Shown here in pieces: positions 23,233-60,911 of a DNA stretch of 61,149 bases. Where the stretch lies: the NCBI GenBank assembly GCA_038325725.1, contig JBBQJG010000001.1:1-61149 (forward strand), read 5' to 3'. The first letter of the stretch is position 1; every line of letters starts with the position of its first letter. The translations under genes were made by a program, and so were the position numbers. Source of the DNA: Polyangia bacterium (lineage in GTDB: Bacteria > Myxococcota_A > Polyangia > Fen-1088). The notes beneath the pieces are model-generated. The model worked only from the letters and a program-made list of their open reading frames with translations, searched no databases and was not told where the DNA came from.

Positions 23233-23241
23233 CTCGGGCCG

Positions 23242-24126
23242 TCACCAACCGAAGATCGACACCTCGGTGATGTTGAGGATGGCGAGGCTCGGCTCGCTCG
23301 GCGGGCCGCCGGCCAGGTGGCGAATACGAACGTAGCGCGCGTCGACGGCCTTCGGGATCGTGACGATGATGTCGTTGCCGTCGGCCGGGAAGACGCCTGT
23401 GAAGTCGCCCGTCGGAACGAGCGTGCAGCCCGTGCCGGTGGAGGTGCAACTCGACGTGCACGGACTCGACGAGGAAGTTGCCGGTTCGATCGTTGTGGGC
23501 GTCGGCGCGGTTCGTGAGACGGACCAGCTTCACCTTGCGGGTCGACCCGAGATCGACCTGCCACCAGGGCGCCGCGTCGGTGCTCTTGGTGAGCATGTAC
23601 GTCGAGTTGTAGTTGCCGTCGATGGCGAGCTTCGCGACGTGCGTGCCGTCGGCGTTCGTCGATTGCGACGCCGTCGCGAGGCCGTTGTGCGTGAGGTCCG
23701 TCAGGATGCAGAAGCCGCCCGAGGACGTCCCTCTTGGCAGGCGGGCAGGTTCTTGCAGTTGGGGTTGAGGGTCGTGTCGCAGCTCGAACCGATCTGCGTG
23801 CACGGCGCCTCGCCGATGCGTCCGCAGGAGACGCAGGTGCCGAGACCGCCCGATAGACGGCACTCTTGCCGCGCGCCGGGGAACGGAGGCGACGAGATCG
23901 CCGTCTCCGAGCCCGGGCAGTGCGCCGCCGCGTTGCAGCCGTCGCCGCACTGGTTGATGAACGTGGAGTTGACCGCGATGCTCGTCATCCGCCGGCCCGC
24001 GTCGACGCCCGACGTGCTGCTCGACGACGTCAGCGACTGCCCGCACTCCAAGTCCGACGTGGGCACGAGAGGCTTGTAGTCGATGGTCGCCGATCGGCCG
24101 GCGGGCCAGATCCCGAGCTCGCGCAC
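23242..24126 (-). pseudogene. Cys-rich / F5-8 type C (discoidin) domain protein disrupted by two compensating frameshifts, or by sequence errors
   Basis: Frame B (24126 to about 23735) gives a Cys-rich region ...NPNCKNLPACQ. Frame A (about 23730 to 23475) gives GGFCILTDLTHNGLATASQS..AIDGNYNSTYM..PWWQVDLGSTRKVKLVRLTNR...GNF. Frame B resumes (about 23425 to 23242) with CTLVPTGDFTGVFPADGNDIIVTIPKAVDARYVRIRHL...ITEVSIFGW*. There is no signal peptide at the N-terminus. Confidence 0.6.
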
Positions 24127-24174
24127 GAAGCACTCGCCCGGGGCCCCCTTCGGGAGGGAGCGGCCCTCCCCGCG

Positions 24175-26151: not shown

Positions 26152-26182
26152 CGGCGGCCAGTGTACCCGAGCCGATGACGCT

Positions 26183-26211
26183 TTGACTCCCCCGACGGAG
26201 AGATTTACTGT
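26183..26211 (+). promoter_or_regulatory. candidate sigma-70-type promoter TTGACT-N17-TACTGT
   Basis: Read directly. The -10 hexamer ends 9 nt before the ATG at 26221, which would imply a near-leaderless transcript. Confidence 0.25.
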
Positions 26212-26220
26212 TTTCCTCCT

Positions 26221-26910
26221 ATGAGACCTATTCGAGCCTTTTCTAAGAGATTCACCATCGTCCTCACGTTGGCGCTTTGTACGGGGTCTCTGTCCGGCTC
26301 GCTCGGTGGCGCGACCGCCGCCGCCGCCGACAAGCAGCTCAACGGGCTCGAGATGAAGGCGCGCGAATCGTTCGCCGCCGGGCGCTACGACGAAGCGCTG
26401 CAGACGTTCGCGAAGCTGTACGCCGAGACGTTGCACCCCGTGTACCTGCGCAACATCGGCCGCTGCCATCAGAAGATGCGCGAGCCGCAGAAGGCCATCG
26501 ACGCGTTCCAGGACTACCTGGCGAAGACGAAGACGGGCAAAGACAAGATCACGCCCGACGAGCACACCGAGATCGAAGGCTACATCAAGGACATGGAGAC
26601 GCTGCGCGACGCGCAGACGGCGGTGCCGCCCGCCCCGGCCGCTCCCGTGCAGCCCTTGAATGGCAATCCGAACGGAACGACCACCGCCGCGCCGATCCTC
26701 GCGCAGCCGGCGCCGCAGCCCGCGAGCGCGTCGAACCCGACGATGCTCGTCTCGACGCCGCCTCCCACCGAGGAATCGCATCCCATCTACACGCGCTGGT
26801 GGTTCTGGACGGGCGTGGGCGCCATCGTCGTGGGCGGCGTCGTCGCCGCCGTCGTGCTGTCTGGGGGCTCGACGCGGGACGCGTGTCCGACGGGAGTGGT
26901 CTGCAAATGA
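26221..26910 (+). CDS. TPR-like secreted protein with a C-terminal TM anchor
   Basis: Signal peptide, one or two TPR-like helices (GRYDEALQTFAKLY...EPQKAIDAFQDYL), a Pro/Ala linker, and the TM segment WWFWTGVGAIVVGGVVAAVVL. Confidence 0.65.
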   Translation: MRPIRAFSKRFTIVLTLALCTGSLSGSLGGATAAAADKQLNGLEMKARESFAAGRYDEALQTFAKLYAETLHPVYLRNIGRCHQKMREPQKAIDAFQDYLAKTKTGKDKITPDEHTEIEGYIKDMETLRDAQTAVPPAPAAPVQPLNGNPNGTTTAAPILAQPAPQPASASNPTMLVSTPPPTEESHPIYTRWWFWTGVGAIVVGGVVAAVVLSGGSTRDACPTGVVCK

Positions 26911-47274: not shown

Positions 47275-48030
47275 CTACGCGCGCGCGTGCTGCGCGTAGG
47301 TCGCGAGCACGAGCCCGAGGTTGTAGCTCGCGTGCAACGCGACGGCGGGAATCAGCGAGCCCGTCGCCGCGCGCGCCCGCGCGGCCAGCGTGCTCAACAC
47401 GCCGATCGCGACCCAAGCCGGCCAGTACGCGCCGATCTCCGTGGCGTGCATCGCGACGAAGATCATCGTCGTGACGAACCCCGCGCGCGACGACGTCCAC
47501 CTCGCGGCGAGCCCCGAATAGAGCACGCCGCGAAACACGAGCTCCTCGACGGGCGGCGCGATCGCGACGGCGAGCACGGCCCACCCGACGCGCAGCCACC
47601 CGCCCGCCGCGGCGATGCGCCCGAGCGGCCCGAGCTCGTGGGGCGGCGTGGGCAAGACCCGCCCGGCGAGCGCGAACGCGAGGACGAGGCCGAGGCCCGT
47701 GAGCGCGGCGCGAGCCGCCTGCCGCGCGGACACCCGCGTCCAGCCGATCGCCGTCATCGCCGCCGCTTCGGGCGTCGCCGGCAACGCCCGCCACGCGAGC
47801 GCGAGGACGACCGCGCCGCCGAGCAGCGTCCCGGCGATGGCCGCCACGAGGGTCACCCGAGGATCTATCTGAATCCCGATCTGAAGCCCGCCGGCCTCGG
47901 GCGCGACGCCCGACCGAAGCGCCGTCCGCGCGACCGAGACCCCCACGCCAATGGCAACGGCGAGCTGGGAACCCAGGAACGCCGCGAAAATCACGAGGGC
48001 TCGCCGGGGCCCGAAGGTCGGAGGTGACAT
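47275..48030 (-). CDS. CPBP-family intramembrane glutamic endopeptidase (CAAX protease-like)
   Basis: Motifs PPVEELVFRGVLY, FVAMHATE, ALHASYNL. About 7 TM. ATG at 48030 (the track TTG at 48039 is an alternative). Confidence 0.8.
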   Translation of the reverse strand: MSPPTFGPRRALVIFAAFLGSQLAVAIGVGVSVARTALRSGVAPEAGGLQIGIQIDPRVTLVAAIAGTLLGGAVVLALAWRALPATPEAAAMTAIGWTRVSARQAARAALTGLGLVLAFALAGRVLPTPPHELGPLGRIAAAGGWLRVGWAVLAVAIAPPVEELVFRGVLYSGLAARWTSSRAGFVTTMIFVAMHATEIGAYWPAWVAIGVLSTLAARARAATGSLIPAVALHASYNLGLVLATYAQHARA

Positions 48031-48047
48031 CGCGATCAACCACCATT

Positions 48048-50477
48048 ATGCTGACCGACCTCGTGGATTCGCAGAACGAATCGCCGCCCGCCGCCGAGGC
48101 CGCCGCCCCCCCCGGGCTGCCCGCGGACGTGGACCCGACCCTGCCGCCCCCTCCACCGATCGTGGCGGAGGAACAGCAGCTCCTGGCGATCGTGCTGCGC
48201 AAGCTCGACGCCGCGGCGCCGAAGAAAGCCCGCGCGCACGTCGACGACGCGGGCTCGATGATCGAGCTGCGCGATCAGCTCGCTGCGGCGAAGCCCGAGG
48301 ACCAGGGCTCGATCCTCGAGCAGATGCACCGCATCGAGGCGCTGTCGCGCCAGCGCGGCAAGGGCGACAGCCCGCCCATCGATCGCAAGTCGCCCTACTT
48401 CGGCCACCTGCGCCTCGATGAGGGCGGCAAGCGCCGCGACGTGCTCGTGGGCGCGCGCAGCTACGTCGAGCCGGGCGGCGGCGTGCAAATCGTTGATTGG
48501 CGCAACGCGCCCGTGTCGCGCCTGTTTTATCGTTACGAAGAAGGCGACGGCTACGAAGAGCGGCTCGGCGATCGGCTCGTCGAGGGCGAGGTGCTCGCGC
48601 GCCGCACCGTCGCGATCGTCGAGTCCGACCTGCGCCGCGTCGCCGCTCCGCAGGGCACCTTCGCGCGCGACTTCAAGACGGGCGAGTGGCGCCAGATCGC
48701 CGCGCAGCAAGCCAAGCTGCAGATCGCGCGCGACGGCAGCGGCGCGACGCTGATCCCCGCGCGCCCCGGCAAGGCGAGCCCGATGGCGACGCTGCCGCCC
48801 GCGATGCGCGGCAAGCTGGGACTCGATGGCGACGGCGAGCGCCGCCCCGACCGTCACCTGCCGGCGATCGCGGCGCTCATCGACCCCAGACAATTCGAGC
48901 TCATCACGCAGCCTTCGTCGGGCCTGATCGCCGTCCAGGGCTCCGCGGGCAGCGGCAAGACGACGATCGGGTTGCACCGCATCGCCTACCTGGCTTTCGC
49001 AGAGCCGCGCCGCTTCCGTCCCGAGCGGATGCTCATCATCGTCTACCAGCGCGCGCTCGCGACGTACGTCTCGCGCGTCTTGCCGGCGCTCGACGTCGAG
49101 GGCGTGCCCGTCATGACCTTCGCCGCCTGGGCCGAGTCGACGCGCCGGGCGACGCTGCCGTTGCTCGACGCGCCCGTCACCGACGAGACGCCGGCGCTCG
49201 TCATGCGCGCGAAGTCACACGGCGGAATGTTGCGCCTGCTCGAGGATCGCCAGGCCGCGATGGTCGCCTGGTGCCGCGCCCAGCTCGCTGGCCTGGCCGA
49301 GGATTCCGCGGCGCGCGCGGCCGCGGCCGACGCCGTCGCGGCGTGGGACGCGACCGCAGCCGCGAAGGGCGCGCCCCTCGTGCCCGTCGACGCGCGCGTG
49401 ACCGCCTTCGCGCACTGGGTGCGCGACGCCAAGCTCGACCCCACGGCGCGCACGGCGCTCGAGCACGCGGGCCGCGCGCTGCGCTCGCGCACGCGCGACG
49501 TCACGTGCGAATGGGCCGCGATGCTCACCGATCGCGAGGCGCTGCGCACGGGCTTCGCGACGCACGCGCCGGGTCTTTTCTCAGACGGCCAGATCGACGA
49601 CATCCACCGCTGGGGCGTCGCGCGCGACCGCCTGCGCACCGGTGGCCGGTTCGAAGACGACGGCGAGGGCTTCGCCTTCGACGCCGAGGACGACGCCCTC
49701 CTCCTGCGCATCTACCAGCTCCAGCGCGGGTCGCTCTCGGGCGGAAAGGGCGCCGCCCCGCTCGCGTACGAGCACCTGATGGTCGACGAGGTGCAGGACT
49801 TCTCGCCCATCGAGCTCGCCGTCCTGCTCGACACGACGAGCAAGCAACGCTCCGTCACGCTCGCGGGCGACACGGCGCAGGCGATCGCGACCGAGCACGG
49901 CTTCTCCGACTGGGCCGAGGTGCTCGACACGCTCGGCATCGCGCACGAGCGCGTCGAGCCGCTGCGCGTGAGCTATCGCTCGACGCGCGAGATCGTCGAG
50001 CTCGCCGAGCACGTCCTCGGCCCGTTGCAGGGCGACGTGCGCCCCGTGGCGCCGCGCGCGGGCGCCCCCGTCGAGGCCTTCGGCTTCGGGTCAGCGGGCG
50101 AGTGCGCCGAGTTCCTCTCGCACGCGCTCAAGGAGCTCGTGCGCGTCGAGCCCGAGGCCTCGGTCGCGCTGCTCGCGCGTCACCCCGAGCAGGCCCAGCT
50201 CTACTACGACGCGCTCTCGCGGGCCGAGGTGCCGGCGTTGCGACTCGTCGCCGACCAGGACTTCCCCTTCACGCCCGGCATCGACGTCACCGACGTGCGC
50301 CAGACGAAGGGTCTCGAGTTCGACATCGTGATCCTCCTCGACGTCAACGAGTCGTCCTACGCCACCTCCGACGAGGCGCGCCGGCTGCTCCACGTCGCCA
50401 TGACCCGCGCCGCCCACCAACTGTGGGTCACCTACACGAGCGCCCCCTCGCCCCTGCTCCCCCCCGGCCTCCGCTAA
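48048..50477 (+). CDS. helD: UvrD-like helicase, HelD (helicase IV) type
   Basis: N-domain SPYFGHLRLDE....VLVGARSYV...IVDWRNAPVSRLFY. Walker A GSAGSGKTTIGLHRIAYL. MVDEVQDFSPIEL. VRQTKGLEFDIVILLD. Alternative start at GTG 48024. Confidence 0.8.
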   Translation: MLTDLVDSQNESPPAAEAAAPPGLPADVDPTLPPPPPIVAEEQQLLAIVLRKLDAAAPKKARAHVDDAGSMIELRDQLAAAKPEDQGSILEQMHRIEALSRQRGKGDSPPIDRKSPYFGHLRLDEGGKRRDVLVGARSYVEPGGGVQIVDWRNAPVSRLFYRYEEGDGYEERLGDRLVEGEVLARRTVAIVESDLRRVAAPQGTFARDFKTGEWRQIAAQQAKLQIARDGSGATLIPARPGKASPMATLPPAMRGKLGLDGDGERRPDRHLPAIAALIDPRQFELITQPSSGLIAVQGSAGSGKTTIGLHRIAYLAFAEPRRFRPERMLIIVYQRALATYVSRVLPALDVEGVPVMTFAAWAESTRRATLPLLDAPVTDETPALVMRAKSHGGMLRLLEDRQAAMVAWCRAQLAGLAEDSAARAAAADAVAAWDATAAAKGAPLVPVDARVTAFAHWVRDAKLDPTARTALEHAGRALRSRTRDVTCEWAAMLTDREALRTGFATHAPGLFSDGQIDDIHRWGVARDRLRTGGRFEDDGEGFAFDAEDDALLLRIYQLQRGSLSGGKGAAPLAYEHLMVDEVQDFSPIELAVLLDTTSKQRSVTLAGDTAQAIATEHGFSDWAEVLDTLGIAHERVEPLRVSYRSTREIVELAEHVLGPLQGDVRPVAPRAGAPVEAFGFGSAGECAEFLSHALKELVRVEPEASVALLARHPEQAQLYYDALSRAEVPALRLVADQDFPFTPGIDVTDVRQTKGLEFDIVILLDVNESSYATSDEARRLLHVAMTRAAHQLWVTYTSAPSPLLPPGLR

Positions 50478-50534: not shown

Positions 50535-50637
50535 CGCGCGGCTTCGCCGCGCGAAGCGAGCGCCCGGGGGGGCGGGACCCTCTCAGGGTCCCGAAGTAAG
50601 CGAGCGCCCGGGGGTGCGGGACCCTCTCAGGGTCCCG
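50535..50637. terminator. three GC-rich hairpins between the convergent helD and PilZ genes (candidate bidirectional terminators / REP-like elements)
   Basis: Hairpins: cgcgcgg-cttcg-ccgcgcg (50535-50553), cgggaccct-ctc-agggtcccg (50573-50593), and the same hairpin again at 50617-50637. The latter two lie in a 44-bp direct repeat (50554-50597 and 50598-50641). No U-tracts are present. Confidence 0.45.
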
Positions 50638-50968
50638 CAGTAGACGACGCCGACTGGAAGAACTGGTTCAGCGCCCAGACGTCGCGGGCGCGGAGGCCCT
50701 GGAAGCGAATGCCGATGCCGCCCTGGGGGCCGTCCTTCTTGACGACCCAGCGCACGTCACCCGCGACCTCCACCGCCTCCGGCTGCGTCGGCAGTTGAAA
50801 ACGAAGCTGCACGGTCGCGCCGAGCTCGAGATTGATCGCCGAATCCAAGAACACCCCACCCAGCGAGATGTTCACGGTCTTCGACGTGTGCTTCTTGCCG
50901 TCGGAGATGACCTCGACATCCAGCTGGCGTTCGTACCGGGGGTCGATGCGGCGAAAATGCTCGGCCAA
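50627..50968 (-). CDS. PilZ domain protein
   Basis: RIDPRYERQLDVEV...TVNISLGGVFLDS...GIGIRF (RxxxR ... D/NxSxxG pattern). Confidence 0.8.
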   Translation of the reverse strand: MAEHFRRIDPRYERQLDVEVISDGKKHTSKTVNISLGGVFLDSAINLELGATVQLRFQLPTQPEAVEVAGDVRWVVKKDGPQGGIGIRFQGLRARDVWALNQFFQSASSTAGP

Positions 50969-51100: not shown

Positions 51101-52123
51101 CTAAAGGGACGGCGCCGATAGCATCGTGATCATTGGGCAAACTGACGCGTCCCCGCCGACGTTCTCACTCGCCGCGAACGGTTTCACGTTGAACGTCGCC
51201 TTGAACGACCGGTCCCAGCATTCGGTCTGACGCAGACCGACGCCGTCGCCCGAAGCGACCGAGAGGTCCGACCGTCCCTCTCCGGTCGGCAGCCACAGGC
51301 TCGTGATGTTCACGTGCTCGATGGGGGAGGTCGGCAGGCCGATGATGTTGGCGAAGACGTCGAACGCCATTTGGCCCTGGCCGGCGTCCGTCGCCTGGTA
51401 ATCGTACGTCACCGTCGGCGCTGGGTTCATCGGCGAGCTCGGATCGTCGGGCAGGTCCGTGATCATCATCGCGATGTGGATCGGATCCGCCGCCGTCGCC
51501 GGGTACGGCTTCTTGTAGTCGATCTCGAGGTGGTCGAGCGTCTTCCAGTCCGAGACATCGAGCCCCGCGGCGCGCACGGCGGCCAGCACGACCTCGAGGT
51601 GACCCATGCCCTGGCGCGCGGTCTTGCCCGCGTCGAAGCTGCCGCGCACGAAGACGGGCCACGCGAGATCCGACGTCCCGATCTTGTGCACGGCGATCTC
51701 GAAGTCGAAGACGTTTCCGTCGAGCATGTCGCGCCACATGAACATGCGGCGCTGCCAATCGAGGTTCGTCGTGTCCTGCTGCCCGGGACCGAAAGGCCCC
51801 CACATGCGGCTGTCGCGGGTGCGCGACGTCGGCGGGTAGCTGCGGATGAGATCGACGAGACCGACGAGCGTCGCCGTGAGGCCGTTGAAGTCGCGCGTCG
51901 TCTCGTGCGTCTTGCGCGCGAGCTCGGCCTCTTCGAGGATCGTGATGGCTGACGAGCGCGCGGGGATCTCGACGCTGAGATCGGCCCGCTTGGGCAGCGC
52001 GTTCATGAACTCGAGATCTTCGTTCGAGTAGTTGCCGCACGCCGAGGCGACGACGCCAAGCAGGAGGGCGAGGGCGAGCGCGGCAACGGGAACTTTCCGG
52101 GCGCAGTTGGGACTAGAGGTCAT
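51101..52123 (-). CDS. orphan lipoprotein A (paralog of 55194-56228)
   Basis: MTSSPNCARKVPVAALALALLLGVVAS/ACG lipobox. The start overlaps the caspase gene end by 11 nt. Blocks shared with lipoprotein B are described in the findings. Confidence 0.65.
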   Translation of the reverse strand: MTSSPNCARKVPVAALALALLLGVVASACGNYSNEDLEFMNALPKRADLSVEIPARSSAITILEEAELARKTHETTRDFNGLTATLVGLVDLIRSYPPTSRTRDSRMWGPFGPGQQDTTNLDWQRRMFMWRDMLDGNVFDFEIAVHKIGTSDLAWPVFVRGSFDAGKTARQGMGHLEVVLAAVRAAGLDVSDWKTLDHLEIDYKKPYPATAADPIHIAMMITDLPDDPSSPMNPAPTVTYDYQATDAGQGQMAFDVFANIIGLPTSPIEHVNITSLWLPTGEGRSDLSVASGDGVGLRQTECWDRSFKATFNVKPFAASENVGGDASVCPMITMLSAPSL

Positions 52124-53726
52124 ACGACACCGCCGTGGCGAGCTCCCAGAATCCCAGGGAGCGGTTTCCGTCAACGTTGTACAGGAGGTAGTGGAGGCGG
52201 CCGCGCAGCACGACGGCCCAGCTCTGCGAGAGGCGCCAATTGACGCCGCCCACGAGGCCGGGCGAGAGCGTCGAGAAGAACTGTGAGGGGAAAGCGTCGT
52301 CGTCGAACTTGCGCGTCATGACGAGGAGCGCGAGGCGCCCGCCTACAAAAGGTGTGAGCGTGCGGTGCGGCCACTCGACGCCGAGCGACGTCGCGAGCGA
52401 CAGCTCGCTGAAGCGGAACGGCGCCGTCGTCGACGGCAAGGTGACGACGCCGTTGGCGCCGCCGCCCGCGACGTCGACGCCCCAGACCCAGTCGTGGCGG
52501 AAGAAGTTTCGCAGCTGTGCGTCGACGCCGAGGAGGCCCGTCGCGGGGAACAGGCTCTCGCGTGTGGGCGCGTCGAACACTGACTGAAAGCCGCCGCCCA
52601 CGCCGACGGACCAGCGCGTGGTGACGTCGGGACGAGAAAGATAGGCGCCTTTGACGGGATCGTCCGAGAAGGCCGCGTCGCGCAGGCGGCTCTCGTCGAG
52701 CGTGATCATCTGGCCCGACGCGACGTCGATCTCGCCGACGCGCAGGCGATCGGCCAAGCGACGCTTGACGCGGTAGTGGCCCGGGGCCAAGGCGACGCGG
52801 CGGTCTCCATCGGCGTTCTTGACGATCTCGGCGGCGACGAAGCCTTGATGGTCCACGAGGTAATAGACCCCGACGGGGGCCTCGCGCGGAAAGTAGATGC
52901 CCTCGCGGCGCGCGGCGACGTCTGTGAGCACGAGATCGCCGTTGCCGGCGAGGTCGTAGCTGAAGGTCGGGTGCTGCGCGCCCGCGGCGCTCTCGGCCGT
53001 GTCGGCGACGGTGCGATCGTAGGCGTAGGCGTAGGCCTCGAACAGCGTGACGCGGCCGTCGCCCGATTTGTCGGCGCCGCCGAGCAGGCCGCTCGCCAGG
53101 TGGTGCGAGAAGTAGCTGCCGCCCACGAGATCCGATTCTTGCGAATCTTCGTCCGAGGCGCTCGACGTGAGGATGACGAGACCCTTCGCGTCGCGCGGGC
53201 CGTCGGCCTGGACGGCGAAGGCGGGGGCGCGGCGCGCGCCCTTCGTGCGCGTGAGCTCGCCCGAGCGGCACGAGTCGAGGATCGCGATGCGCACGTCGAC
53301 GGGCGACGACGCGAGGCGCGCCTTGAGCGAATCGAGCGGCAGGCTCGTGTCGCCCAAGCGCAGCGCGCCGTCCTTGGCGTGACCCGAGTAGTAGACGAAA
53401 AGAGCAGTGCGCTCGCCGCGCGCCTCGGCGTCGGCGGCGCGGCGCTCGGCCGTCCCGATCGCCGTGAGCAGATCCTGCGCCGTGCCGTCGAGCACGAGCT
53501 GCGCGTCGTCGGCGCGCACGCCGCCGAGGCGCGTGAGGATGTCGACGACCTTGCGCGCGTCGGCCTTTGCGTAGAGCAACGGACGCGTGTCTCGCCCCCC
53601 CGAGTCATTGCCGACGACGACCGCAAAGCGGTGCAGCCCGTCGGCGCGCGCCGACGCCGCGAACGGCGACGCGAACGACGCCGCGACGGCGACGATGCCG
53701 AAAGTGATGCGAATGCGCCTGGTCAT
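52113..53726 (-). CDS. exported caspase-family (peptidase C14) protein with a C-terminal beta-barrel-like domain
   Basis: Signal peptide ...SPFAASARA/DG. Caspase core HRFAVVVGND..., His context FVYYSGHAKDG, Cys context IAILDSCRSGE. The C-terminal ~170 aa have alternating strands and end ATAVSYDL. Confidence 0.85.
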   Translation of the reverse strand: MTRRIRITFGIVAVAASFASPFAASARADGLHRFAVVVGNDSGGRDTRPLLYAKADARKVVDILTRLGGVRADDAQLVLDGTAQDLLTAIGTAERRAADAEARGERTALFVYYSGHAKDGALRLGDTSLPLDSLKARLASSPVDVRIAILDSCRSGELTRTKGARRAPAFAVQADGPRDAKGLVILTSSASDEDSQESDLVGGSYFSHHLASGLLGGADKSGDGRVTLFEAYAYAYDRTVADTAESAAGAQHPTFSYDLAGNGDLVLTDVAARREGIYFPREAPVGVYYLVDHQGFVAAEIVKNADGDRRVALAPGHYRVKRRLADRLRVGEIDVASGQMITLDESRLRDAAFSDDPVKGAYLSRPDVTTRWSVGVGGGFQSVFDAPTRESLFPATGLLGVDAQLRNFFRHDWVWGVDVAGGGANGVVTLPSTTAPFRFSELSLATSLGVEWPHRTLTPFVGGRLALLVMTRKFDDDAFPSQFFSTLSPGLVGGVNWRLSQSWAVVLRGRLHYLLYNVDGNRSLGFWELATAVSYDL

Positions 53727-53750
53727 GAGGCCTGGGACGGCGACGCCCCG

Positions 53751-54560
53751 CTACGGCTTGATGAACGTCCTTTGGAATTGCTCGCCTGGCAGATCGAGCG
53801 CCGGCATGTGCAGGATATCGCCTTTGGCTTTTTCGAACGACGCGCGCGCCGCGGCGCGGGCCGCGTCGACGTCGATGGGCGAATCGCTGAGGATCACGAA
53901 GAGGCGCTCCGTGCCGGCGTCGGTGAACTCGATGCTGTCGGGCAGATAGCGCGGCGCCGCGCCCACGACCTTGCCGACGGACAGGCTGCGCCCCGCCTCG
54001 GGATACAGCGGCGTCACCTGGCCGCGCTGGTCGATAGACACAGACAGCACGTAGCGGTGCGTGCCGGCTTGGTAGCCGATGCGCACGCGCTCGCCCGGCG
54101 CGAGCGCCTCGGGCGCGTCGGGGGACGCCGTGCGCTGCGGGCCCTCGCCCGCGCCCACGCGCACGGTGATTCCCGAGCCTTTGACGCGATTGGGCCCCGT
54201 CGCCTCGCCGCCGGTGAACGACACGAACAGCGCGAGCGCTGCGGCGACGGCGAACGTCGGCACGAAGACGCTAAAGACACGCTTCTCGACCGCCGCCTTG
54301 TCGTTCCGCTCGGGCGCCCGCGACGCGCGGGCGACGCCCGCCGCGAAGCGCTCGAACGAGATCTCGTGCTCGAAGCGGCGCTGCTCGTCGTCGAGCGCCT
54401 TGAGGCGCGCGCGGCAATCACCGCACGTCGTCGCGTGCGCCGCGAGATCGGCGTTGCCGACGTCGTCGACGGCGAACGTCTCGCCCGCGCGGAACCGGCG
54501 CAGCGCCAAATCTCCGAAGTGGCTCCCGGGCGTCTGACCCGACATTTGAGGCCCCGTCAT
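53751..54560 (-). CDS. anti-sigma factor (zf-HC2 type) with one TM and a periplasmic beta-rich domain
   Basis: H-x3-C-x2-C motif (AAHATTCGDCRARL). TM segment VFVPTFAVAAALALFVSF. The ATG overlaps the sigma gene stop (ATGA). Confidence 0.75.
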   Translation of the reverse strand: MTGPQMSGQTPGSHFGDLALRRFRAGETFAVDDVGNADLAAHATTCGDCRARLKALDDEQRRFEHEISFERFAAGVARASRAPERNDKAAVEKRVFSVFVPTFAVAAALALFVSFTGGEATGPNRVKGSGITVRVGAGEGPQRTASPDAPEALAPGERVRIGYQAGTHRYVLSVSIDQRGQVTPLYPEAGRSLSVGKVVGAAPRYLPDSIEFTDAGTERLFVILSDSPIDVDAARAAARASFEKAKGDILHMPALDLPGEQFQRTFIKP

Positions 54561-55102
54561 TGGATCTCCTTCAGGTTCTTGCCGGCGATCGCCGACACGC
54601 TCTCCAGACGTTTGCGAATCGTGGGCACCGAGCGCCCGAGCAGCTTCGCGACCTCATCGAGCGTCATCTCGTCGACGAAGTAGTGAACGGCCGCCTGCTG
54701 CGTCTCGAGGTCGAGCTTGCCGAGCAGCTTGCGGACAGCGTCGCGATCCTCGAGGAGCTGCGGCCCCCCGTGGCCTTCACCGCGGGCTTTCTCCTGGCGC
54801 GCGAACAGCTGGTGCCACGGCGCGCGCTCGGCGCGCTGCACGTTGAGGCAGTGGTGCGTCGCGATGCGGATGAGCCACGTCAGCGGCGACGACTCGTTCC
54901 GAAACTCGCTCCAGTGGAGCATCGCCTTCGCGAACACATCCTGCAGGGCGTCCTCGGCCTTCGCGCGATCCCGCAACAAGTATTGGCAGCGTCCGTAGAC
55001 GCTGCCGCCGTAGGCCGAATAGAGCTCGCGCAGAGCCGCCCGCGTGTCGTCGGCCTTGCCGCCGGCGACGATCTTCAGGTTGGGTCGGCTCGTGTCGGTC
55101 AT
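54557..55102 (-). CDS. ECF-type RNA polymerase sigma factor
   Basis: Region 2 YGGSVYGRCQYLLRDRAKAEDALQDVFAKA ... WLIRIATHHCLN. Region 4 LDEVAKLLGRSVPTIRKRL. Confidence 0.9.
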   Translation of the reverse strand: MTDTSRPNLKIVAGGKADDTRAALRELYSAYGGSVYGRCQYLLRDRAKAEDALQDVFAKAMLHWSEFRNESSPLTWLIRIATHHCLNVQRAERAPWHQLFARQEKARGEGHGGPQLLEDRDAVRKLLGKLDLETQQAAVHYFVDEMTLDEVAKLLGRSVPTIRKRLESVSAIAGKNLKEIQ

Positions 55103-55117
55103 GTTGAAACGCTGCGG

Positions 55118-55144
55118 CCCCTCTCCCCGCCGTGCGGGGAGAGG
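55118..55144. terminator. 11-bp GC-rich hairpin (ccctctccccg-ccgtg-cggggagaggg) between lipoprotein B and the ECF sigma gene
   Basis: Read directly. It ends 15 nt upstream of the sigma ATG on the minus strand. No U-tract. Its role as terminator, attenuator or processing site is unknown. Confidence 0.35.
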
Positions 55145-55193
55145 GAGACGGATTCTCCCACTGATTTCCTACCGGACTTCACAAACCGCTCTG

Positions 55194-56228
55194 TTACAGG
55201 CCTGCGTAGACCGCGGTTGGGAAGGCGGTGGAGCAGGCGGTCTCGGCGCCCCAGCCGGCGCCGGGGGCGTAGGCCTCGGAGAGGTACACGCTCTTGAAGT
55301 TCGTGTCCCAGCACTCGGAGGCCTGACCCGCCGTCGTCGTCAGATCGCCGCCCATGTTGGACAGGTCGCTGCGGCCCGTGCCGTCCTCGAGCCACCGGCT
55401 GTGGAAGGTGAAGTGCTCCTTCTGCGAGCCCGTGTTGCCCGGGTCGGGGAAGTTGTCCTTGTCCTCGGCGTAGCGAAGGTCGCCGCCCATGCCCGGGGTC
55501 GCGACGTAACGGTAGACGGCGTTGAAGAGCTCGGGCGTCGTGCCGCCGCGGAGATTCCGCTCTTGGATGCCCGTGAAATCGATGTCGACGTGCACGACGG
55601 CATCGGCGAGCAGGCGCGAGTACGTGAAGGTGGCCTTGCCGACGTTGTCGTCGTGCTCGGGCAGCTTCGCGGCGTTGTCCCAATCGATCGTGAACGTACC
55701 GCTGCCGAAGCCTTCGACGTGGTCGCCCGCGGCGTCGACGTCCGCCGTGTGCGTGCCCGAGATGATCGTCATGAACGCCGAATCAGCGGGGGTCTTCGGG
55801 CGGGCCTCGAGCAGCCACTGGAACTTGTGCGCCTCGAGGCGGTCGACCGTGAGGCGCCACGTGTTGGGCGACAGCGCATCCGTGTGCGGTCCCCACACCG
55901 CCGACTGGCTCTTCTTGTCGACGGTCGTCGGCGGGAACGCGACGATCGTCCTGACGAGCGTGAGCACGGCCCACGTGCCGCCGTTGGCGATGCCGGTCAC
56001 CGCGCGCGTCGCCGTATACATGTCGGACTGTTGACCGAGCAGCGCGCCCGTCGCGCTCGCGCCCGGGCCCGCGCCGTCCGCGGGCGCGCCCGCGACGTGC
56101 AAGGCGACCGTCTCGCGCGTCGGCACGCCGCCGCGGAATTCATCGCCGTCGTCGGGCTTCCGGCAACCGGTCGCCGCGAGAGTCGTCACGAGGCCCACCA
56201 CCGCGCACATCGAAGTGACTGTCTTCAT
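55194..56228 (-). CDS. orphan lipoprotein B (paralog of 51101-52123)
   Basis: MKTVTSMCAVVGLVTTLAATG/CRK lipobox. The track ORF extending to 56846 is a shadow extension over the kinase gene tail. Confidence 0.65.
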   Translation of the reverse strand: MKTVTSMCAVVGLVTTLAATGCRKPDDGDEFRGGVPTRETVALHVAGAPADGAGPGASATGALLGQQSDMYTATRAVTGIANGGTWAVLTLVRTIVAFPPTTVDKKSQSAVWGPHTDALSPNTWRLTVDRLEAHKFQWLLEARPKTPADSAFMTIISGTHTADVDAAGDHVEGFGSGTFTIDWDNAAKLPEHDDNVGKATFTYSRLLADAVVHVDIDFTGIQERNLRGGTTPELFNAVYRYVATPGMGGDLRYAEDKDNFPDPGNTGSQKEHFTFHSRWLEDGTGRSDLSNMGGDLTTTAGQASECWDTNFKSVYLSEAYAPGAGWGAETACSTAFPTAVYAGL

Positions 56229-56298
56229 GCGCCAACAGACACGGCTGTCGCGCGAAACGGAAAGGCGCCTCGCGCCCGCAAACGCCCCGCGGCGAAGC

Positions 56299-58125
56299 CT
56301 AGGGGTTTTCGGGCGCCGTCGGGGCGGGCGGCGGCGGAGCGGGCGCGGGCTCGAGCGACGGATCGGGGGCCATCTGATTCTTGAGCGCCTCGATGCGGCG
56401 CGCGGACTCGCTCTTTTCGGCCTTCTCGCCCTTCTCCGCACTGCCAACGTGGGCCTTGTGGCCACCCGGTTCACGCGCGGGCTCCCTCTCGTCGATCTTG
56501 TGCGAAGCGCCCTCGGAGGAGGCGGCCGTATCGGCGGCGTTGCGCTTCTCCCCGACCGCGGCCTTCTTGGAGGGCTCGTCGGTCTTGGCTTCGGCAGACT
56601 TCGCTTCGCCGAGGTTTGCGGCGCCGGGATTTGCCGCGCCGGGGTTTGCCGCGCCGGGATTTGCTTCGCCGGGGTTTGCGGCGCCGGTCTTGGCGGCGCC
56701 GCTCTTGGCTTCGCGGGTCTCGGCGGGCGTCTCGGGCGCGGCCGGGGGCGTCGCGGCGGCGGGCGCCGGCTCTCCCTGCAGTTCGCGCAGGAGACCGAAG
56801 TAGCGGCCCGCGAACGCGGCGCCTCCCAAGATGAGCAGGCCGACAAAGACGATCGTCATCCCGCTGCCCCGACGCGCGCGCCGTCTGCCGGGCCGCTCGT
56901 CACCCTCCGAGAGCGTGCCGAACTCGAGCGGCGCGTGCCGTCCCGACAGTGCGGACTCGCCGTCGCTGGACACGGGCAGCGACAGCTCCTCGACCCGTTG
57001 GCGCGTCATGCGCGGGCGCATCTCGCCGCCGGGACCGTCGAGGCTCGCGAGCGAGGTCGCCTCTTCGGCATCGACCTCGCCCTGCATGTCGGTGAGCTCG
57101 ACATCCTTTCCTTCCATCTCCCCGGTGGCGGCGCCGGGGCTGCGCTCGCCCGTCGTGATGCGGCCGGGCGGCGGCGTCATCATCGCCTTCGACATCGGGG
57201 CCTGCCCGTCGCGCGCGCCGAGACCGGCGAGCCACCGCTTGAGCTCGGTCTGGCCCACGGGCCGGAACACCGTGCGCAGCACGTTCTCGATCGCCGCCAG
57301 CATCTCGTCGGCGCTCTGGAACCGCAGGTCGGGATCGAGCTCCATCGAGCGCGCAATGATGGAGCTCACCTCGGCGGGCAGATCGGGCGCGACGACGTGC
57401 GCGGGCTTGAACTCGCCGTGCTGCACGCGCAGCAACACCTCGAGATCCGTCGCCGCCTCGAACGGCCGCACGCGCGTCATGAGCTGGTACAGCACCGTGC
57501 CGACGGCGAAGAGATCCGAGCGCGCGTCGATCGGCTTGCCGAGCGCCTGCTCGGGCGACATGAACGCGACCTTGCCCTTCACGACGCCCGTGCCCGTGTG
57601 CTCGCGCTTGTTCATCGCCTTGGCGATGCCGAAGTCGGTGAGCTTCACTTCGCCCTGCTCGGACAGCAGGATGTTCTGCGGGCTCACGTCGCGGTGGACG
57701 ATGCCGAGGGGCCGCTCGCCCGACGCGTCCATCTTGCCGTGCGCGTACGCGAGCGCGCGGCACACCTCGGCCGCGACGTGCAGGCCGAGGTCTCTCGGGA
57801 ACGGCATGCCGGCCGTCGCCGCGCGGTGGAGCACGCGCCCCAGATCCCACCCGTCGACGGCCTCGAGGACGAGGAAGTAACGGCCGGCGCCCACGCCGAG
57901 ATCGAGGATCTGCACGATGTTGCTGTGCGACAGACCCATCGAGATGTGGGCCTCGTCGAGGAACATGTTGCGGAACTGCGGGTCCGCGTAGATGGAACTG
58001 TGGATCCGCTTGAGGATGACGGGCTTCTGGAAGCCCTCGCGGCCGAGCTGGGTCGCCAGGAAGATCTCCGCCATCCCGCCATCCGCGACCTTCCGGACGA
58101 TCTTGTAACGGCCGTGCTTCGCCAT
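56299..58125 (-). CDS. eukaryotic-like Ser/Thr protein kinase with one TM and a low-complexity extracytoplasmic tail
   Basis: GGMAEIFLA...VILKRI, HRDVSPQNILL, DFGIAK, MSPEQ. TM segment MTIVFVGLLILGGAAFAG. The tail carries (GAANP)n and Lys/Glu/Ala-rich stretches. ATG at 58125 (alternative TTG at 58137). Confidence 0.9.
   Translation of the reverse strand: MAKHGRYKIVRKVADGGMAEIFLATQLGREGFQKPVILKRIHSSIYADPQFRNMFLDEAHISMGLSHSNIVQILDLGVGAGRYFLVLEAVDGWDLGRVLHRAATAGMPFPRDLGLHVAAEVCRALAYAHGKMDASGERPLGIVHRDVSPQNILLSEQGEVKLTDFGIAKAMNKREHTGTGVVKGKVAFMSPEQALGKPIDARSDLFAVGTVLYQLMTRVRPFEAATDLEVLLRVQHGEFKPAHVVAPDLPAEVSSIIARSMELDPDLRFQSADEMLAAIENVLRTVFRPVGQTELKRWLAGLGARDGQAPMSKAMMTPPPGRITTGERSPGAATGEMEGKDVELTDMQGEVDAEEATSLASLDGPGGEMRPRMTRQRVEELSLPVSSDGESALSGRHAPLEFGTLSEGDERPGRRRARRGSGMTIVFVGLLILGGAAFAGRYFGLLRELQGEPAPAAATPPAAPETPAETREAKSGAAKTGAANPGEANPGAANPGAANPGAANLGEAKSAEAKTDEPSKKAAVGEKRNAADTAASSEGASHKIDEREPAREPGGHKAHVGSAEKGEKAEKSESARRIEALKNQMAPDPSLEPAPAPPPPAPTAPENP
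56611..56700. repeat. 15-bp tandem repeat x6 (ggggtttgccgcgcc and variants) encoding G-[AE]-A-N-P pentapeptides on the minus strand
   Basis: Read directly in the kinase 3' region. Confidence 0.8.
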
Positions 58126-58178
58126 CGGCCGGGTCAACTTACCATCAGTCGACCGCTAGCGGTCGCGTCGGATGCACG

Positions 58179-60911
58179 CTAGCGACGACGACGCTTTGGC
58201 CGGACTGTCATGACGAGGCCGAGGGCCGCCAAGGCGAGCGCGAAGCCCGACACAGGATCGCGCCCCGACGTCGCGCAGGCGCAGCCGCCGCCCTTTTCGC
58301 CCGTCGTGACGTGGACGAGCTGGCACGAGGGCCCCGGTTCGAGCTTGCACGTCGCCTCGCCGTTGCTCCTGACCGCGCACACGTAGCAGGGGCCCGGGCA
58401 CTTGACGAAAGTGCACGGGTCGGTCGCGCACTCGCCGGTGGCCTGGATGCAGGCTTGGCCCGCGGGGCACTGCATCGCCTGGCACGAGTCGGACTTGCAG
58501 GTGCCCGTCGTGACGTCGCAGTACTGGGCGTCGCGACACACGACCGTCGCGCACGGATCGGACACGCACTGGCCCGAGACGCACGTCTGTCCCACGGCAC
58601 ACTCGATGTGCGTGCACAGGTCGACGCACGAGCCGTTAGAACAGTACTGGCCGTTCGAGCACGACTTGCCGTAGCACGGATCGGTCATGCACGCGCCGGC
58701 GACGCACGCCTGACCGGTGGCGCATTGTTCACCGGCCGACGCGCAGTCGACGCAGACGCCGGCCTTGCAGTGCGACGGCGCGTTGCACAGCACCTTGTCG
58801 CACAGATCGACGCACAGGCCGCTGTCGTTGTCGCAGCGTTGCGTGCTCGGGCACTTCACGCCCACGCAGCGCTGCGGAATGCAGTACGTGTCGACGCACA
58901 TGTAGCCGGACGGGCACGGGAACTCGCCCGGCTTGCACACGAGCGTGCACGCGCCCGACTTGCACGCGAAGCCGCTGGGGCACGTCGCCTGTTTGTCGGC
59001 CATGCCGTCGCAGTCGTTGTCGCGCCCATCGCAGACCTCGGGACGCGGGAAGGTGCAGCCCTCGCACACGACGCCGAGCTGGCCGCGACAGACCTTCTTG
59101 CCCGCCTTGCAGTCACCGCCCGAATCGACCTGGGCCTGCGTGAGCCCGGCGCAGAGGCACGAGTCGCCGACGCCCGGGAAGTCGCCGTTGTCGACGACGC
59201 CGTCGCAGTCGTCGTCGAGGCCGTTGCACGTCTCGGTCATGGGCATGCTCATCTGTTCGCAGATGAGGTGGCCGCTCACGCACTTCGTGACGCCCGCCAT
59301 GCACACGCCGAGATCGGCGCCGCACTTCTCGCCGACGCCCGGCAGGACGCCGTCGTCCTTGAGGCCGTTGCAGTCGTCGTCGATGTTGTTGCAGACCTCT
59401 ATGCCCGGCGTCACCGTCGGCGCGTCGCAGAAGGTGCCGGTCTTGTCGGGCTTGCAGGCGAGGATGCCGCCGCGGCGGCAAGCGCCCATCTGGCCGTTCG
59501 TGCACGCGGCGCCCACGAAGTAGCCCTCGTCGATGTTGCCGTCGCAGTTGTTGTCGAGGCCGTCGCAGACCTCCGCGGGGACGGCGCAGCCGCACGCGCC
59601 GCCGCAGGCGTTCGTGGGCAAACCCTCGTCGACCTGCCCGTTGCAGTTGTCGTCGAGGCAGTTGCACGTCTCGACGGCGCAGTGGGCGGCCGCCGTGCCG
59701 AGCTTGTTGTCGGCGTTGTTGGGATCATCCGAGCGAGGACACTTGTTGCTCACGCCCTCGTCGATGAGGCCGTTGCAGTTGTCGTCGACGCCGTTGCACA
59801 TCTCGGCGGGTGGCACCGTCGAGGCGATGATGCCGACGAGCGCGGCCTTCACGGCCGCCGTGTCGGTGAGCGAGACCTTGATGGCGTTGCCCGTGCCGCC
59901 CGCGATCGCGATGTTCGAGTTGAGGTTGCCCGAGACGCTCGTGTCGGTGATGACGTACGTCTTCACCTTCGAGTTGCTGCGCAGGAGCTTGCAGGCCTGC
60001 ACCTCGGGGTGGAACGTCGCGAAGCCCGTCTGCGCGCACGTCTGGTAGTTCAGCGCCGAGCCCGAGTTGTAGTCACACGTGTCGTTGCCGTCGGTGACGA
60101 GGATGACGATGTTCTGGCGGCAGGCGCGGCGCGGATCGGCGGCCGTCGTGATGAAGTTGTCGAAGTACAGGCGCGAGTAGAACAGCGAGCGGCCGAGCGG
60201 CGTGCCGCCGTTGGCGTGCAGCTCGGGATCGGTGAGCGCGGCGGCGTTGGCGACGGGGCCCGGGTTCTCGGTGTTGTCGATAAAGCGATAGATGCGCGCG
60301 ATGTTCGCGTCGGACGGATCGAAGTCCGCGGCGACGGGCTTCGCGCCCGGCGCGGCCTTCGTGAGATCGACGCGCAGCGCCTGGCTGATTGCCGAGTCGA
60401 ACCACGCGCCGTAGGCGGGCTCGGCGCCGGCCGCGTTCGTCGTGCTCGAAGGGTCGGTCGACAGACGGCAGCCGAGGCCGACCGTCGAGTCGAGGTAGTA
60501 GTGACCGACGGGACCGACGCCGCACGCCTCAGAGGTGCAGTTGAAGCAGCCGAAGTTCATGGTCCCGCGCGAGGGATCGCCGGCGCCAGGCGGCTGCGTG
60601 AGCCCCGGGTCGAGCAGCTGCGGGAACGTCATGAGGCCGAAGTTCGCCTCGTCCGTACCCACCTGCGCGAGCGCTTCGCGGATGGCCGTCTTGAGCGAAA
60701 AGAGCCGGCTGTTCCCGACCGGGGCGGCGGGACAGCTCCCGGCTGTCTGGTTGACCCGCTCGCCCGCCGACGTCGCCGTCGCGTCGAGCTGCATCGAGCC
60801 CGACGTGTCGAAGACGATGAGGATGTTGGGACGCAGCGACTGCGCGACGGCGGGCGCGGCCGCCGCACCCACGGCGGCGAGGGCGAGCGCGAGAGCGAGG
60901 CCTTTCTTCAT
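58179..60911 (-). CDS. vWA domain / MopE-like putative metal-binding repeats / Cys-rich repeat protein with a MYXO-CTERM signal
   Basis: Signal peptide MKKGLALALALAAVGAAAAPAVA/QS. vWA MIDAS motif ILIVFDTSGSM and ILVTDGNDT. Six C-x-G-x-D-[DN]-[DN]-C-[DN]-G-x-x-D-[EDN]-G repeats. About 15 C-x-x-G-x-C type repeats. C-terminus GGGCACATSG...GFALALAALGLVMTVRPKRRRR. AAGGAGA lies 7 nt upstream of the ATG. Confidence 0.85.
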   Translation of the reverse strand: MKKGLALALALAAVGAAAAPAVAQSLRPNILIVFDTSGSMQLDATATSAGERVNQTAGSCPAAPVGNSRLFSLKTAIREALAQVGTDEANFGLMTFPQLLDPGLTQPPGAGDPSRGTMNFGCFNCTSEACGVGPVGHYYLDSTVGLGCRLSTDPSSTTNAAGAEPAYGAWFDSAISQALRVDLTKAAPGAKPVAADFDPSDANIARIYRFIDNTENPGPVANAAALTDPELHANGGTPLGRSLFYSRLYFDNFITTAADPRRACRQNIVILVTDGNDTCDYNSGSALNYQTCAQTGFATFHPEVQACKLLRSNSKVKTYVITDTSVSGNLNSNIAIAGGTGNAIKVSLTDTAAVKAALVGIIASTVPPAEMCNGVDDNCNGLIDEGVSNKCPRSDDPNNADNKLGTAAAHCAVETCNCLDDNCNGQVDEGLPTNACGGACGCAVPAEVCDGLDNNCDGNIDEGYFVGAACTNGQMGACRRGGILACKPDKTGTFCDAPTVTPGIEVCNNIDDDCNGLKDDGVLPGVGEKCGADLGVCMAGVTKCVSGHLICEQMSMPMTETCNGLDDDCDGVVDNGDFPGVGDSCLCAGLTQAQVDSGGDCKAGKKVCRGQLGVVCEGCTFPRPEVCDGRDNDCDGMADKQATCPSGFACKSGACTLVCKPGEFPCPSGYMCVDTYCIPQRCVGVKCPSTQRCDNDSGLCVDLCDKVLCNAPSHCKAGVCVDCASAGEQCATGQACVAGACMTDPCYGKSCSNGQYCSNGSCVDLCTHIECAVGQTCVSGQCVSDPCATVVCRDAQYCDVTTGTCKSDSCQAMQCPAGQACIQATGECATDPCTFVKCPGPCYVCAVRSNGEATCKLEPGPSCQLVHVTTGEKGGGCACATSGRDPVSGFALALAALGLVMTVRPKRRRR

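Follow-up and report, generated by a model that had tools for sequence, protein, structure and literature searches.

Which protease releases a sigma factor of the extracytoplasmic function (ECF) type from its membrane-bound anti-sigma factor, and can a secreted caspase homologue encoded beside both of them be this enzyme? Bacteria use ECF sigma/anti-sigma pairs as their third major mode of signal transduction, and the activating protease or the signal has been assigned in a minority of the groups. Bacterial caspase homologues are abundant and, beyond defence by clustered regularly interspaced short palindromic repeats (CRISPR) and cyclic-oligonucleotide-based antiphage signalling systems (CBASS), almost without assigned function. 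The two are joined in the cell envelope by a five-gene locus in a stretch of 61,149 nucleotides (nt) from a Polyangia bacterium (contig JBBQJG010000001.1, positions 1 to 61,149; referred to as the window), and the family is large, a profile search with the caspase in 1.84 billion cluster representatives having returned 12,456 relatives at E < 1e-3 and 2,585 relatives, counted as clusters at 50% identity, at E < 1e-30. We tentatively propose, with a confidence that falls somewhat short of even, that this caspase serves its anti-sigma factor as dedicated site-1 enzyme and that a short motif, R-x-K-G, marks the place of its autoprocessing as well as its target on the anti-sigma factor. This reading is favoured because the genes for sigma factor, anti-sigma factor and protease persist as a trio, because the motif is mimicked between the partners, because the protease is predicted to cut after basic residues, and because what remains after the cut would be a short stub on which a site-2 protease could act. 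The genes of the locus, in the order of their presumed transcription, are:

55194-56228, minus strand: lipoB, 344 amino acids (aa), lipobox ATGC with Cys22, first gene of the putative operon, member of an orphan family and paralog of lipoA
54557-55102, minus strand: ECF sigma factor of 181 aa, limited to regions 2 and 4
53751-54560, minus strand: anti-sigma factor, 269 aa, with N-terminal anti-sigma domain, one transmembrane helix and a periplasmic DUF4384-type domain
52113-53726, minus strand: caspase-fold protease, 537 aa, with signal peptide, Peptidase_C14 domain, beta-sandwich and predicted 8-stranded outer-membrane barrel
51101-52123, minus strand: lipoA, 340 aa, lipobox SAC with Cys29, last gene and paralog of lipoB

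The five open reading frames (ORFs) follow each other head to tail on the minus strand of a contig with a G+C content (GC) of 70%, whose nearest relatives are metagenome-assembled genomes (MAGs) of Polyangia (Myxococcota). The tight packing described in the initial annotation of this DNA is borne out in the window at the coordinates it gave: sigma and anti-sigma genes share an ATGA overlap, 24 nt separate the anti-sigma gene from the caspase gene, and the end of the caspase gene runs 11 nt into the start of lipoA. With one genome scanned per species, 217 relatives of the caspase were found, and the following statements on order and spacing rest on the best 80 loci, which include Polyangia MAGs at 67-85% identity as well as Corallococcus, Myxococcus, Archangium, Hyalangium, Vitiosangium, Pyxidicoccus, and Citreicoccus at approximately 60% identity. 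Wherever the flanking sequence suffices, practically all of these loci retain the order lipoB-sigma-anti-sigma-caspase-lipoA, a conservation far beyond chance, and the synteny of caspase and sigma/anti-sigma pair, whose absence from related genomes would have spoken against the initial annotation, is present in about 80 Myxococcota loci. The overlap of sigma and anti-sigma genes is 4 nt almost everywhere, the spacing between anti-sigma and caspase genes is mostly -4 to +30 nt, that between caspase and lipoA genes mostly -11, -4 or +13 nt, and the gap between lipoB and sigma genes ranges from 0 to 90 nt. All named relatives belong to the Myxococcota, and no plasmid-borne homologs were found.

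The association of the three central genes reaches much further than that of all five. Among the top 150 representatives of the profile search most proteins have a signal peptide, a caspase domain, a sandwich and a C-terminal region with an ending similar to that of outer-membrane proteins (...GxxF), and they form two size classes of approximately 515-550 aa and 650-795 aa. Fifteen caspases of the long class, about 30% identical to the window protein, were aligned and used to search metagenome contigs, which gave 80 loci on contigs with a GC of 0.36-0.74. A homologue of the anti-sigma factor including its periplasmic domain lies directly upstream of the caspase gene in all 70 of these 80 loci for which upstream sequence is available, and an ECF sigma gene on the same strand precedes it wherever the contig reaches far enough. 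Homologues of lipoA or lipoB were found neither at these distant loci nor beside two paralogous Myxococcota operons described below, and there is no conserved fourth gene around the distant trios, the largest cluster of neighbours being present at 8 of the 80 loci. Because the trio recurs in distant paralogs without lipoA, lipoB or another conserved neighbour, we take sigma factor, DUF4384-type anti-sigma factor and secreted caspase to be the ancient unit, judged from this gene-order comparison, and lipoA and lipoB to be accessories of the Myxococcota subfamily. The tie between sensor and protease that the initial annotation had made dependent on a closer look at the anti-sigma domain is supported on two levels, by the synteny in about 80 genomes and by the same trio in the distant paralogs.

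The protease itself carries the following elements of an exported caspase-fold enzyme:

53643-53726, minus strand: Sec signal peptide, residues 1-28, read from the sequence, ending in ASARA before DG
52956-53630, minus strand: Peptidase_C14 domain, residues 33-257, with H116, C153, D56 and D151
53238-53249, minus strand: proposed autoprocessing site R160-T-K162-G163, in the loop that follows the catalytic Cys (L2 position of caspases)

The orthologs and most of the 150 representatives have corresponding signal peptides, and the Pfam Peptidase_C14 model matches with E 8e-11 and 42.5 bits, above its gathering threshold (GA) of 21.4. Across 49 homologues of 68-100% identity H116 in YYSGHAKDG, C153 in ILDSCRSGE, D56, and D151 show no variation, nor do their equivalents in 47 representatives with an identity of only about 30%. 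In a profile search against the PDB the N-terminal half of the caspase aligns to fungal metacaspase-1, with H116 on its SGH motif and D56 on the Asp of CINDA; D151 lies two residues before the catalytic Cys. The protein is a Sec-exported protease with an intact predicted catalytic site, as the signal peptide and the His/Cys dyad noted at the outset had suggested. In metacaspases two Asp residues line the S1 pocket that selects Arg or Lys, and D56 and D151 are putatively assigned to their positions; these acidic residues are invariant, and a basic P1 specificity is therefore predicted. Against the EACC1-associated caspase subfamily of NCBIfam the protein scores 60.3 bits at a cutoff of 140 and is not placed in it.

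The loop that follows the catalytic Cys holds the first copy of the motif on which our proposal depends. In the window protease it reads T-R160-x-K162-G163-A-R165, 7-12 residues after the catalytic Cys, and R160, K162, G163, and R165 are conserved in 81 of 81 caspase orthologs. R.KG occurs no more than 22 residues past the catalytic Cys in 115 of 134 diverse representatives, in 111 of them with the Lys at Cys+9. This post-Cys loop corresponds to the L2 position at which animal caspases are cut for activation. The second copy lies in the anti-sigma factor, just outside the membrane, where the motif is the best-conserved periplasmic element in the alignment of orthologs and paralogs and lies outside the DUF4384 model:

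54177-54188, minus strand: juxtamembrane R125-V-K127-G128 of the anti-sigma factor, proposed site-1 cleavage or docking motif

Its Lys is present in 74 of 75 orthologs and in 53 of 56 distant paralogs (two others have Arg), its Arg in 62 of 75 and 38 of 56, and its Gly in 59 of 75 and 55 of 56, respectively, and the Lys falls 7-39 aa beyond the membrane. At the level of aligned residues, the anti-sigma R-x-K-G mirrors the R-x-K-G of the caspase L2 loop. One sub-clade of distant loci (L121, L127, L132, L137, L144, and L149) has the identical hexamer TRLKGG in the caspase loop and in the juxtamembrane segment of the anti-sigma factor, and motif position -3 covaries between the partners (of 56 pairs, 22 have T/T and 10 have I/I; Fisher p 1e-4 without correction for phylogeny).

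The sigma factor is a minimal ECF (group 4) sigma-70 factor with regions 2 and 4 only, matching Sigma70_r2 (E 8e-14) and Sigma70_r4_2 (E 1e-6) in Pfam and TIGR02937 with 75.9 bits at a cutoff of 42.9. The anti-sigma factor has three further elements in addition to the juxtamembrane motif:

54414-54437, minus strand: zinc-finger-type motif HATTCGDC (H42-x3-C46-x2-C49) in the N-terminal part
54213-54278, minus strand: transmembrane helix, residues 95-116, a conserved hydrophobic segment in the ortholog alignment
53877-54104, minus strand: DUF4384-type periplasmic domain, residues 153-228, from comparison with Pfam PF14326

With HxxxCxxC, an ATGA overlap with the adjoining sigma gene and a single transmembrane helix it is a class I (ZAS-type) anti-sigma factor. 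C46 and C49 do not vary among 42 orthologs, in which H42 reaches a conservation of at least 90%; the Cys pair is absent from most distant anti-sigma paralogs. The zf-HC2 label first given to this protein holds in part, as HxxxCxxC is present and 18 of the 42 orthologs match the model, but the window protein itself is below the threshold and the family consensus reaches 21.5 bits at a GA of 22.2. The likeness of the periplasmic part to DUF4384, at first suggested and left to a check by hidden Markov models, stood up to it. The window protein scores 22.6 bits at a GA of 27, 25 of the 42 orthologs match at E < 0.01, and the family consensus reaches 27.3 bits (E 4e-6) over model positions 2-81 of 81, so that the domain is, by profile score, a real but divergent, borderline DUF4384 member. 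The beta-sandwich of the caspase was considered as a relative of this anti-sigma domain and rejected (HHalign probability 0.7%).

Where the mature protease resides determines whether it can reach this target. An AlphaFold2 (AF2) model of the caspase was built on 49 homologues (mean predicted local distance difference test (pLDDT) 70.7) and consists of the helix of the signal peptide, the caspase fold, a small beta-sandwich and eight long antiparallel strands, with a stretch of pLDDT < 50 at residues 154-204 that includes the L2-loop motif. Its C-terminal half comprises:

52674-52901, minus strand: beta-sandwich linker domain, residues 276-351, AF2 strands with pLDDT of about 64-91, no Pfam match
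52119-52616, minus strand: predicted 8-stranded outer-membrane beta-barrel anchor, residues 371-536, from AF2 and Foldseek

The strands of the barrel have a pLDDT of about 80-93 and its loops are all short, with 3-10 residues. A Foldseek search against the PDB matched it to the solved outer-membrane barrels OmpA-TM, NspA, Ail, OmpX, OmpW, and OprF-N (E 2e-10 to 1e-6, target template modelling (TM) scores 0.64-0.78), whereas no outer-membrane protein family of Pfam matched (Opacity, E 0.1). The window protein ends in ...AVSYDL and its orthologs in ...YDF, ...TYEP or ...TYRL; most paralogs end in ...GxxF. As modelled, the C-terminus is an OmpA/OmpX-like 8-stranded outer-membrane barrel, which agrees with the barrel anchor first read from the strand pattern. 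Eight-stranded barrels of the OmpA type have both termini in the periplasm and form no pore able to export a passenger. Because the matched folds share this topology, the model places caspase and sandwich most likely in the periplasm, hanging from the inner face of the outer membrane and not displayed on the surface; of the two locations that had been considered for the protease, surface and periplasm, the periplasmic and membrane-tethered one remains. In the caspase class of 650-795 aa (loci L081-L160) a long C-terminal region with GxQxxGxxN(x)A repeats and the ending WPGxxxGxxF takes the place of the 8-strand barrel; this region may represent a beta-helix or an outer-membrane anchor of another, larger kind.

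The lipoproteins encoded at both ends of the locus are related to each other over their full length (BLASTP E 6e-13), and profiles of their orthologs, with about 70 sequences each, align with an HHalign probability of 100% and E 1.1e-40; the shared blocks pointed out in the initial annotation are present in the alignment. In the window the signal peptides end in VASAC followed by GNY in lipoA and in LAATGC followed by RKP in lipoB, and a lipobox, of the general form [LVI][ASTVI][GAS]C, is found in 69 of 74 lipoA and in 61 of 71 lipoB sequences, each set including the window protein. Both proteins have two invariant C-terminal Cys, which in lipoB are Cys306 and Cys332 and suggest a disulfide. 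Neither the window proteins nor the consensus sequences match Pfam or NCBIfam, and there is no sequence-profile match in the PDB. The AF2 model of lipoB (pLDDT 79.9, predicted TM score 0.77) has one long helix and about 13 beta-strands, and Foldseek against the PDB returned only noise for it (best E 0.07, TM < 0.25). The profile comparisons thus mark lipoA and lipoB as true paralogs of a genuinely orphan family. Two further paralog operons of Myxococcota have the order lipoprotein-sigma-anti-sigma-caspase, with the lipoprotein gene just upstream of the sigma gene (positions 3045-3776 of locus L162 and 2855-3748 of locus L163). Their lipoproteins share the N-terminus C-x-x-Q-V-x-P-x-Y-x-G-E-P-L and are not homologous to lipoA or lipoB; a lipoprotein upstream of the sigma gene may be a recurrent, exchangeable part of the module.

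Upstream of lipoB lies a bipartite motif with the geometry of an ECF promoter, with approximately 16 nt from the -35 core to CGT:

56238-56263, minus strand: ECF-type promoter motif TTTCCGTTT-N12-CCGTGTC, putative promoter of an autoregulated operon

The consensus cTTTCnGTTT-N12-c(C/T)GTGTC is found with fixed spacing upstream of lipoB in 68 of 70 loci, and 42 loci contain the exact pattern a single time each, invariably at this place. The window contains a single exact match, at a chance expectation of 0.07 when one mismatch is allowed, and further exact copies were found neither in the 61-kb window nor in approximately 0.9 Mb of related loci. Because of this conserved motif upstream of lipoB the five genes probably form one autoregulated operon, P(ECF)-lipoB-sigma-anti-sigma-caspase-lipoA. 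In the window the -10 element CGTGTC ends 10 nt before the ATG of lipoB (56226-56263, minus strand), while in nearly all other loci 28-106 nt lie between them; the short spacing implies, as far as the sequence can tell, a leaderless or near-leaderless lipoB mRNA or a deletion in the 5' untranslated region of this MAG. A second copy with one mismatch at 23753-23778 (plus strand) was rejected as a chance match that faces no credible gene: it sits within a minus-strand gene for an F5/8-type-C-domain protein (23204-24250) and faces only an ORF without Pfam match that overlaps the gene for a glycogen-branching enzyme (24175-26781, minus strand).

Taken at its word, the site-1 proposal describes a short chain of events. 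The protease would cut at, or dock on, the conserved juxtamembrane R-x-K-G of the anti-sigma factor, which would copy the R-x-K-G of the protease's own post-Cys L2 loop; once the DUF4384 domain is lost, a site-2 protease would be presented with a short stub, and the freed sigma factor would raise transcription of the operon from the lipoB promoter. Since the protease, once its barrel is mature, would be kept well away from the inner membrane, we place the trigger, speculatively, in failed or delayed insertion of the protease into the outer membrane, or in its release or re-positioning by way of the two lipoproteins, which might act as clade-specific sensors or modulators. Only a protease that is not yet, or no longer, inserted would then cut, and the module would monitor the assembly of the outer membrane with a logic like that of sigma-E or RcsF. 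In its widest form the idea is a bolder one: DUF4384 anti-sigma factors, as a large family, would have caspase-fold proteases encoded in their operons as dedicated site-1 enzymes, and the module would report assembly or integrity of the outer membrane through un-inserted protease cutting R-x-K-G between Lys and Gly. We consider it rather unlikely to hold as a whole.

Several points weigh against the protease as site-1 enzyme. The site is probably beyond the reach of the assembled enzyme, as it lies within about 10-40 residues of the inner membrane and the linker that ties the mature protease to the outer membrane has only about 20 residues. Genes in one operon are equally expected if they are the output of the regulon. 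Neither a sigma nor an anti-sigma gene adjoins at least one caspase-barrel paralog (P0389, locus L161, 5001-6581), so that the association with the ECF pair is not obligate for the protease family, which can work without it. The Arg/Lys specificity at P1 is a prediction from conserved Asp residues, the covariation of the two motifs is only suggestive, being confounded by shared ancestry, and R-x-K-G could be a structural element in both proteins. That the lipoB promoter depends on this sigma factor, and that a single transcript covers the five genes, we infer from the conserved motif and the gene arrangement, and the literature yielded no experimental characterisation of a periplasmic caspase/ECF system.

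Some of these points return in the strongest rival explanation, in which protease and lipoproteins are the output of the pathway: the DUF4384 anti-sigma factor would sense an envelope cue alone, a generic site-1 protease of the DegS or Prc type would cut it, and the released sigma factor would raise caspase and lipoproteins in order to process or remove damaged or foreign envelope proteins. The promoter motif, which stands only before the operon within the 61-kb window and the approximately 0.9 Mb of related loci, fits this explanation, as the operon's own products may be the regulon, and so do the distance that the barrel topology puts between the mature, tethered enzyme and the anti-sigma factor, the existence of orphan caspase-barrel paralogs, and the occurrence of DUF4384 on kinases and other sensors as well. 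It leaves unexplained, however, why the trio is kept across very distant paralogs while all other neighbours change, and why the best-conserved periplasmic motif of the anti-sigma factor matches the L2-loop motif of the protease. With these two observations standing against it we regard it as doubtful, yet as an explanation that has to be reckoned with.

The same motif mimicry can also be read in the opposite direction, with the anti-sigma factor regulating the protease. R-x-K-G and the DUF4384 domain would be a pseudo-substrate or docking inhibitor which holds newly made protease inactive at the inner membrane until it is handed over to the outer membrane, and release of the sigma factor would report the occupancy by protease. 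Fusions in cis of DUF4384 with caspase and other protease domains are frequent (CDD database), and the Haliangium ochraceum system discussed below includes PCi, an inhibitor dedicated to the caspase. The sequence does not separate an inhibitor from a substrate, but a Lys-Gly bond in an exposed linker near an active site of predicted Arg/Lys specificity is more simply a cleavage site, and we consider the inhibitor improbable. Least probable is an executioner of programmed cell death, abortive infection or developmental lysis, in which breach of the envelope would activate the caspase to degrade essential envelope proteins: caspase-fold proteases do act elsewhere as death or defence effectors and myxobacteria undergo developmental lysis, a link on which a 2012 survey (PMC3501461) speculated, but the conserved module has no CRISPR, CBASS or NTPase partners and no defence-system signature, membership in a defence system being rejected on a weak, generic caspase match in PADLOC, the locus is chromosomal, vertically conserved and core-like across Myxococcota, and the several paralogs per genome recorded in the same survey fit signalling diversity better than a suicide switch. 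The cell-death, developmental or contact-triggered role at first considered for the locus finds no support in any of these results.

The genes that flank the operon differ between clades. A Ser/Thr kinase with an ANPGA pentapeptide-like repeat tail at its C-terminus (56299-58137, minus strand), a PilZ-domain protein (50627-50968, minus strand), and a UvrD-like helicase (48024-50477, plus strand) are syntenic in the Polyangia clade only and not in Myxococcus, Corallococcus or Archangium. A secreted Cys-rich protein of 910 aa (58179-60911, minus strand) with repeated MopE-type putative metal-binding motifs (Pfam E 1.5e-23) is syntenic in only a few Polyangia loci.

If the protease does cut its anti-sigma factor, a new class of protease would enter the regulated proteolysis of anti-sigma factors and the recurrent association of DUF4384 and caspases would be explained. 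Myxobacterial 'metacaspases' would signal rather than kill. In the widest form of the idea the module would further be the periplasmic equivalent of Craspase and represent an envelope-stress sensor of a new class, expanded to several paralogs per myxobacterial genome. The hypothesis is concrete, as it comes down to one catalytic Cys, one Lys-Gly bond and one promoter.

The linkage of sigma factors and caspase homologues as such has been seen before. Four of five metacaspases of M. xanthus DK1622 were found in operons with factors of the sigma-70 family, and sigma-factor/metacaspase operons were also listed for Anaeromyxobacter, Haliangium, Sorangium, Ralstonia, and Fibrobacter (Asplund-Samuelsson et al., 2012; PMC3501461). 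The locus described here almost certainly belongs to this set. The survey was an observation from an operon database that framed the proteases as possible autolysis enzymes, and it did not recognise the anti-sigma/DUF4384 partner, the outer-membrane barrel, the lipoproteins, the promoter, or R-x-K-G. The initial statement that no characterised system wires ECF signalling to a surface or periplasmic caspase therefore stands as far as no characterised periplasmic system was found, but such operons were reported in 2012 (PMC3501461) and cytoplasmic systems of caspase and sigma factor are characterised. The main text of the ECF classification (Casas-Pastor, 2021) does not mention caspase or DUF4384 contexts.

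Two of these cytoplasmic systems would be precedents, by analogy, for the site-1 reading, with Craspase cutting Csx30 and PCaspase cutting a sigma factor. In Craspase (type III-E, with Cas7-11, the TPR-CHAT protein Csx29, Csx30, Csx31, and the ECF factor RpoE) a caspase-superfamily protease cleaves a partner that sequesters a sigma factor, as proposed here: Csx29 cleaves Csx30, which holds the ECF sigma factor, and some C-terminal domains of Csx30 are DUF4384 domains. It differs in being cytoplasmic and RNA-guided, with the CHAT protease fused to TPR, and it is without signal peptide, membrane anti-sigma factor and barrel; no Cas or SAVED genes are among the conserved neighbours of window-type or distant-paralog loci. 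The type III-B SAVED-CHAT/PCaspase/PCc-sigma cascade of H. ochraceum resembles the present locus in that a Peptidase_C14 caspase is encoded with a sigma factor in a member of the Myxococcota. A Ser/Thr kinase is also encoded there, and PCaspase cleaves the sigma factor. This cascade is cytoplasmic, is activated by cyclic oligoadenylate via SAVED-CHAT and lies in a defence island, whereas the protease described here is exported and predicted to be anchored by a barrel, and the kinase beside the window operon is syntenic in the Polyangia clade only.

In its proposed logic the module is closest to regulated intramembrane proteolysis, as in E. coli RseA/DegS/RseP, in Prc/CtpA with FecR-type factors and in signal peptidase with RsiP. 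With the RseA-type systems it would share a periplasmic site-1 cut near the membrane, followed by a site-2 protease, and an autoregulated operon. The known site-1 enzymes of anti-sigma proteolysis are serine proteases, and here an operon-encoded, outer-membrane-anchored cysteine protease of caspase fold is proposed in their place. Dma is likewise an ECF system linked to the outer membrane via a C-terminal beta-barrel; its barrel is on the anti-sigma factor itself, while here the barrel is on a separate protease and the anti-sigma factor is an ordinary single-pass protein of the inner membrane. The literature searches found no description, for these operons, of a barrel that anchors the protease, of an anti-sigma partner with a DUF4384 domain, of the promoter, of the paralogous lipoproteins, or of the motif that protease and anti-sigma factor share. 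New here, next to the sigma/metacaspase linkage that was already known, are the class of protease, with its caspase fold, and the architecture in which it would take part in ECF signalling by regulated proteolysis.

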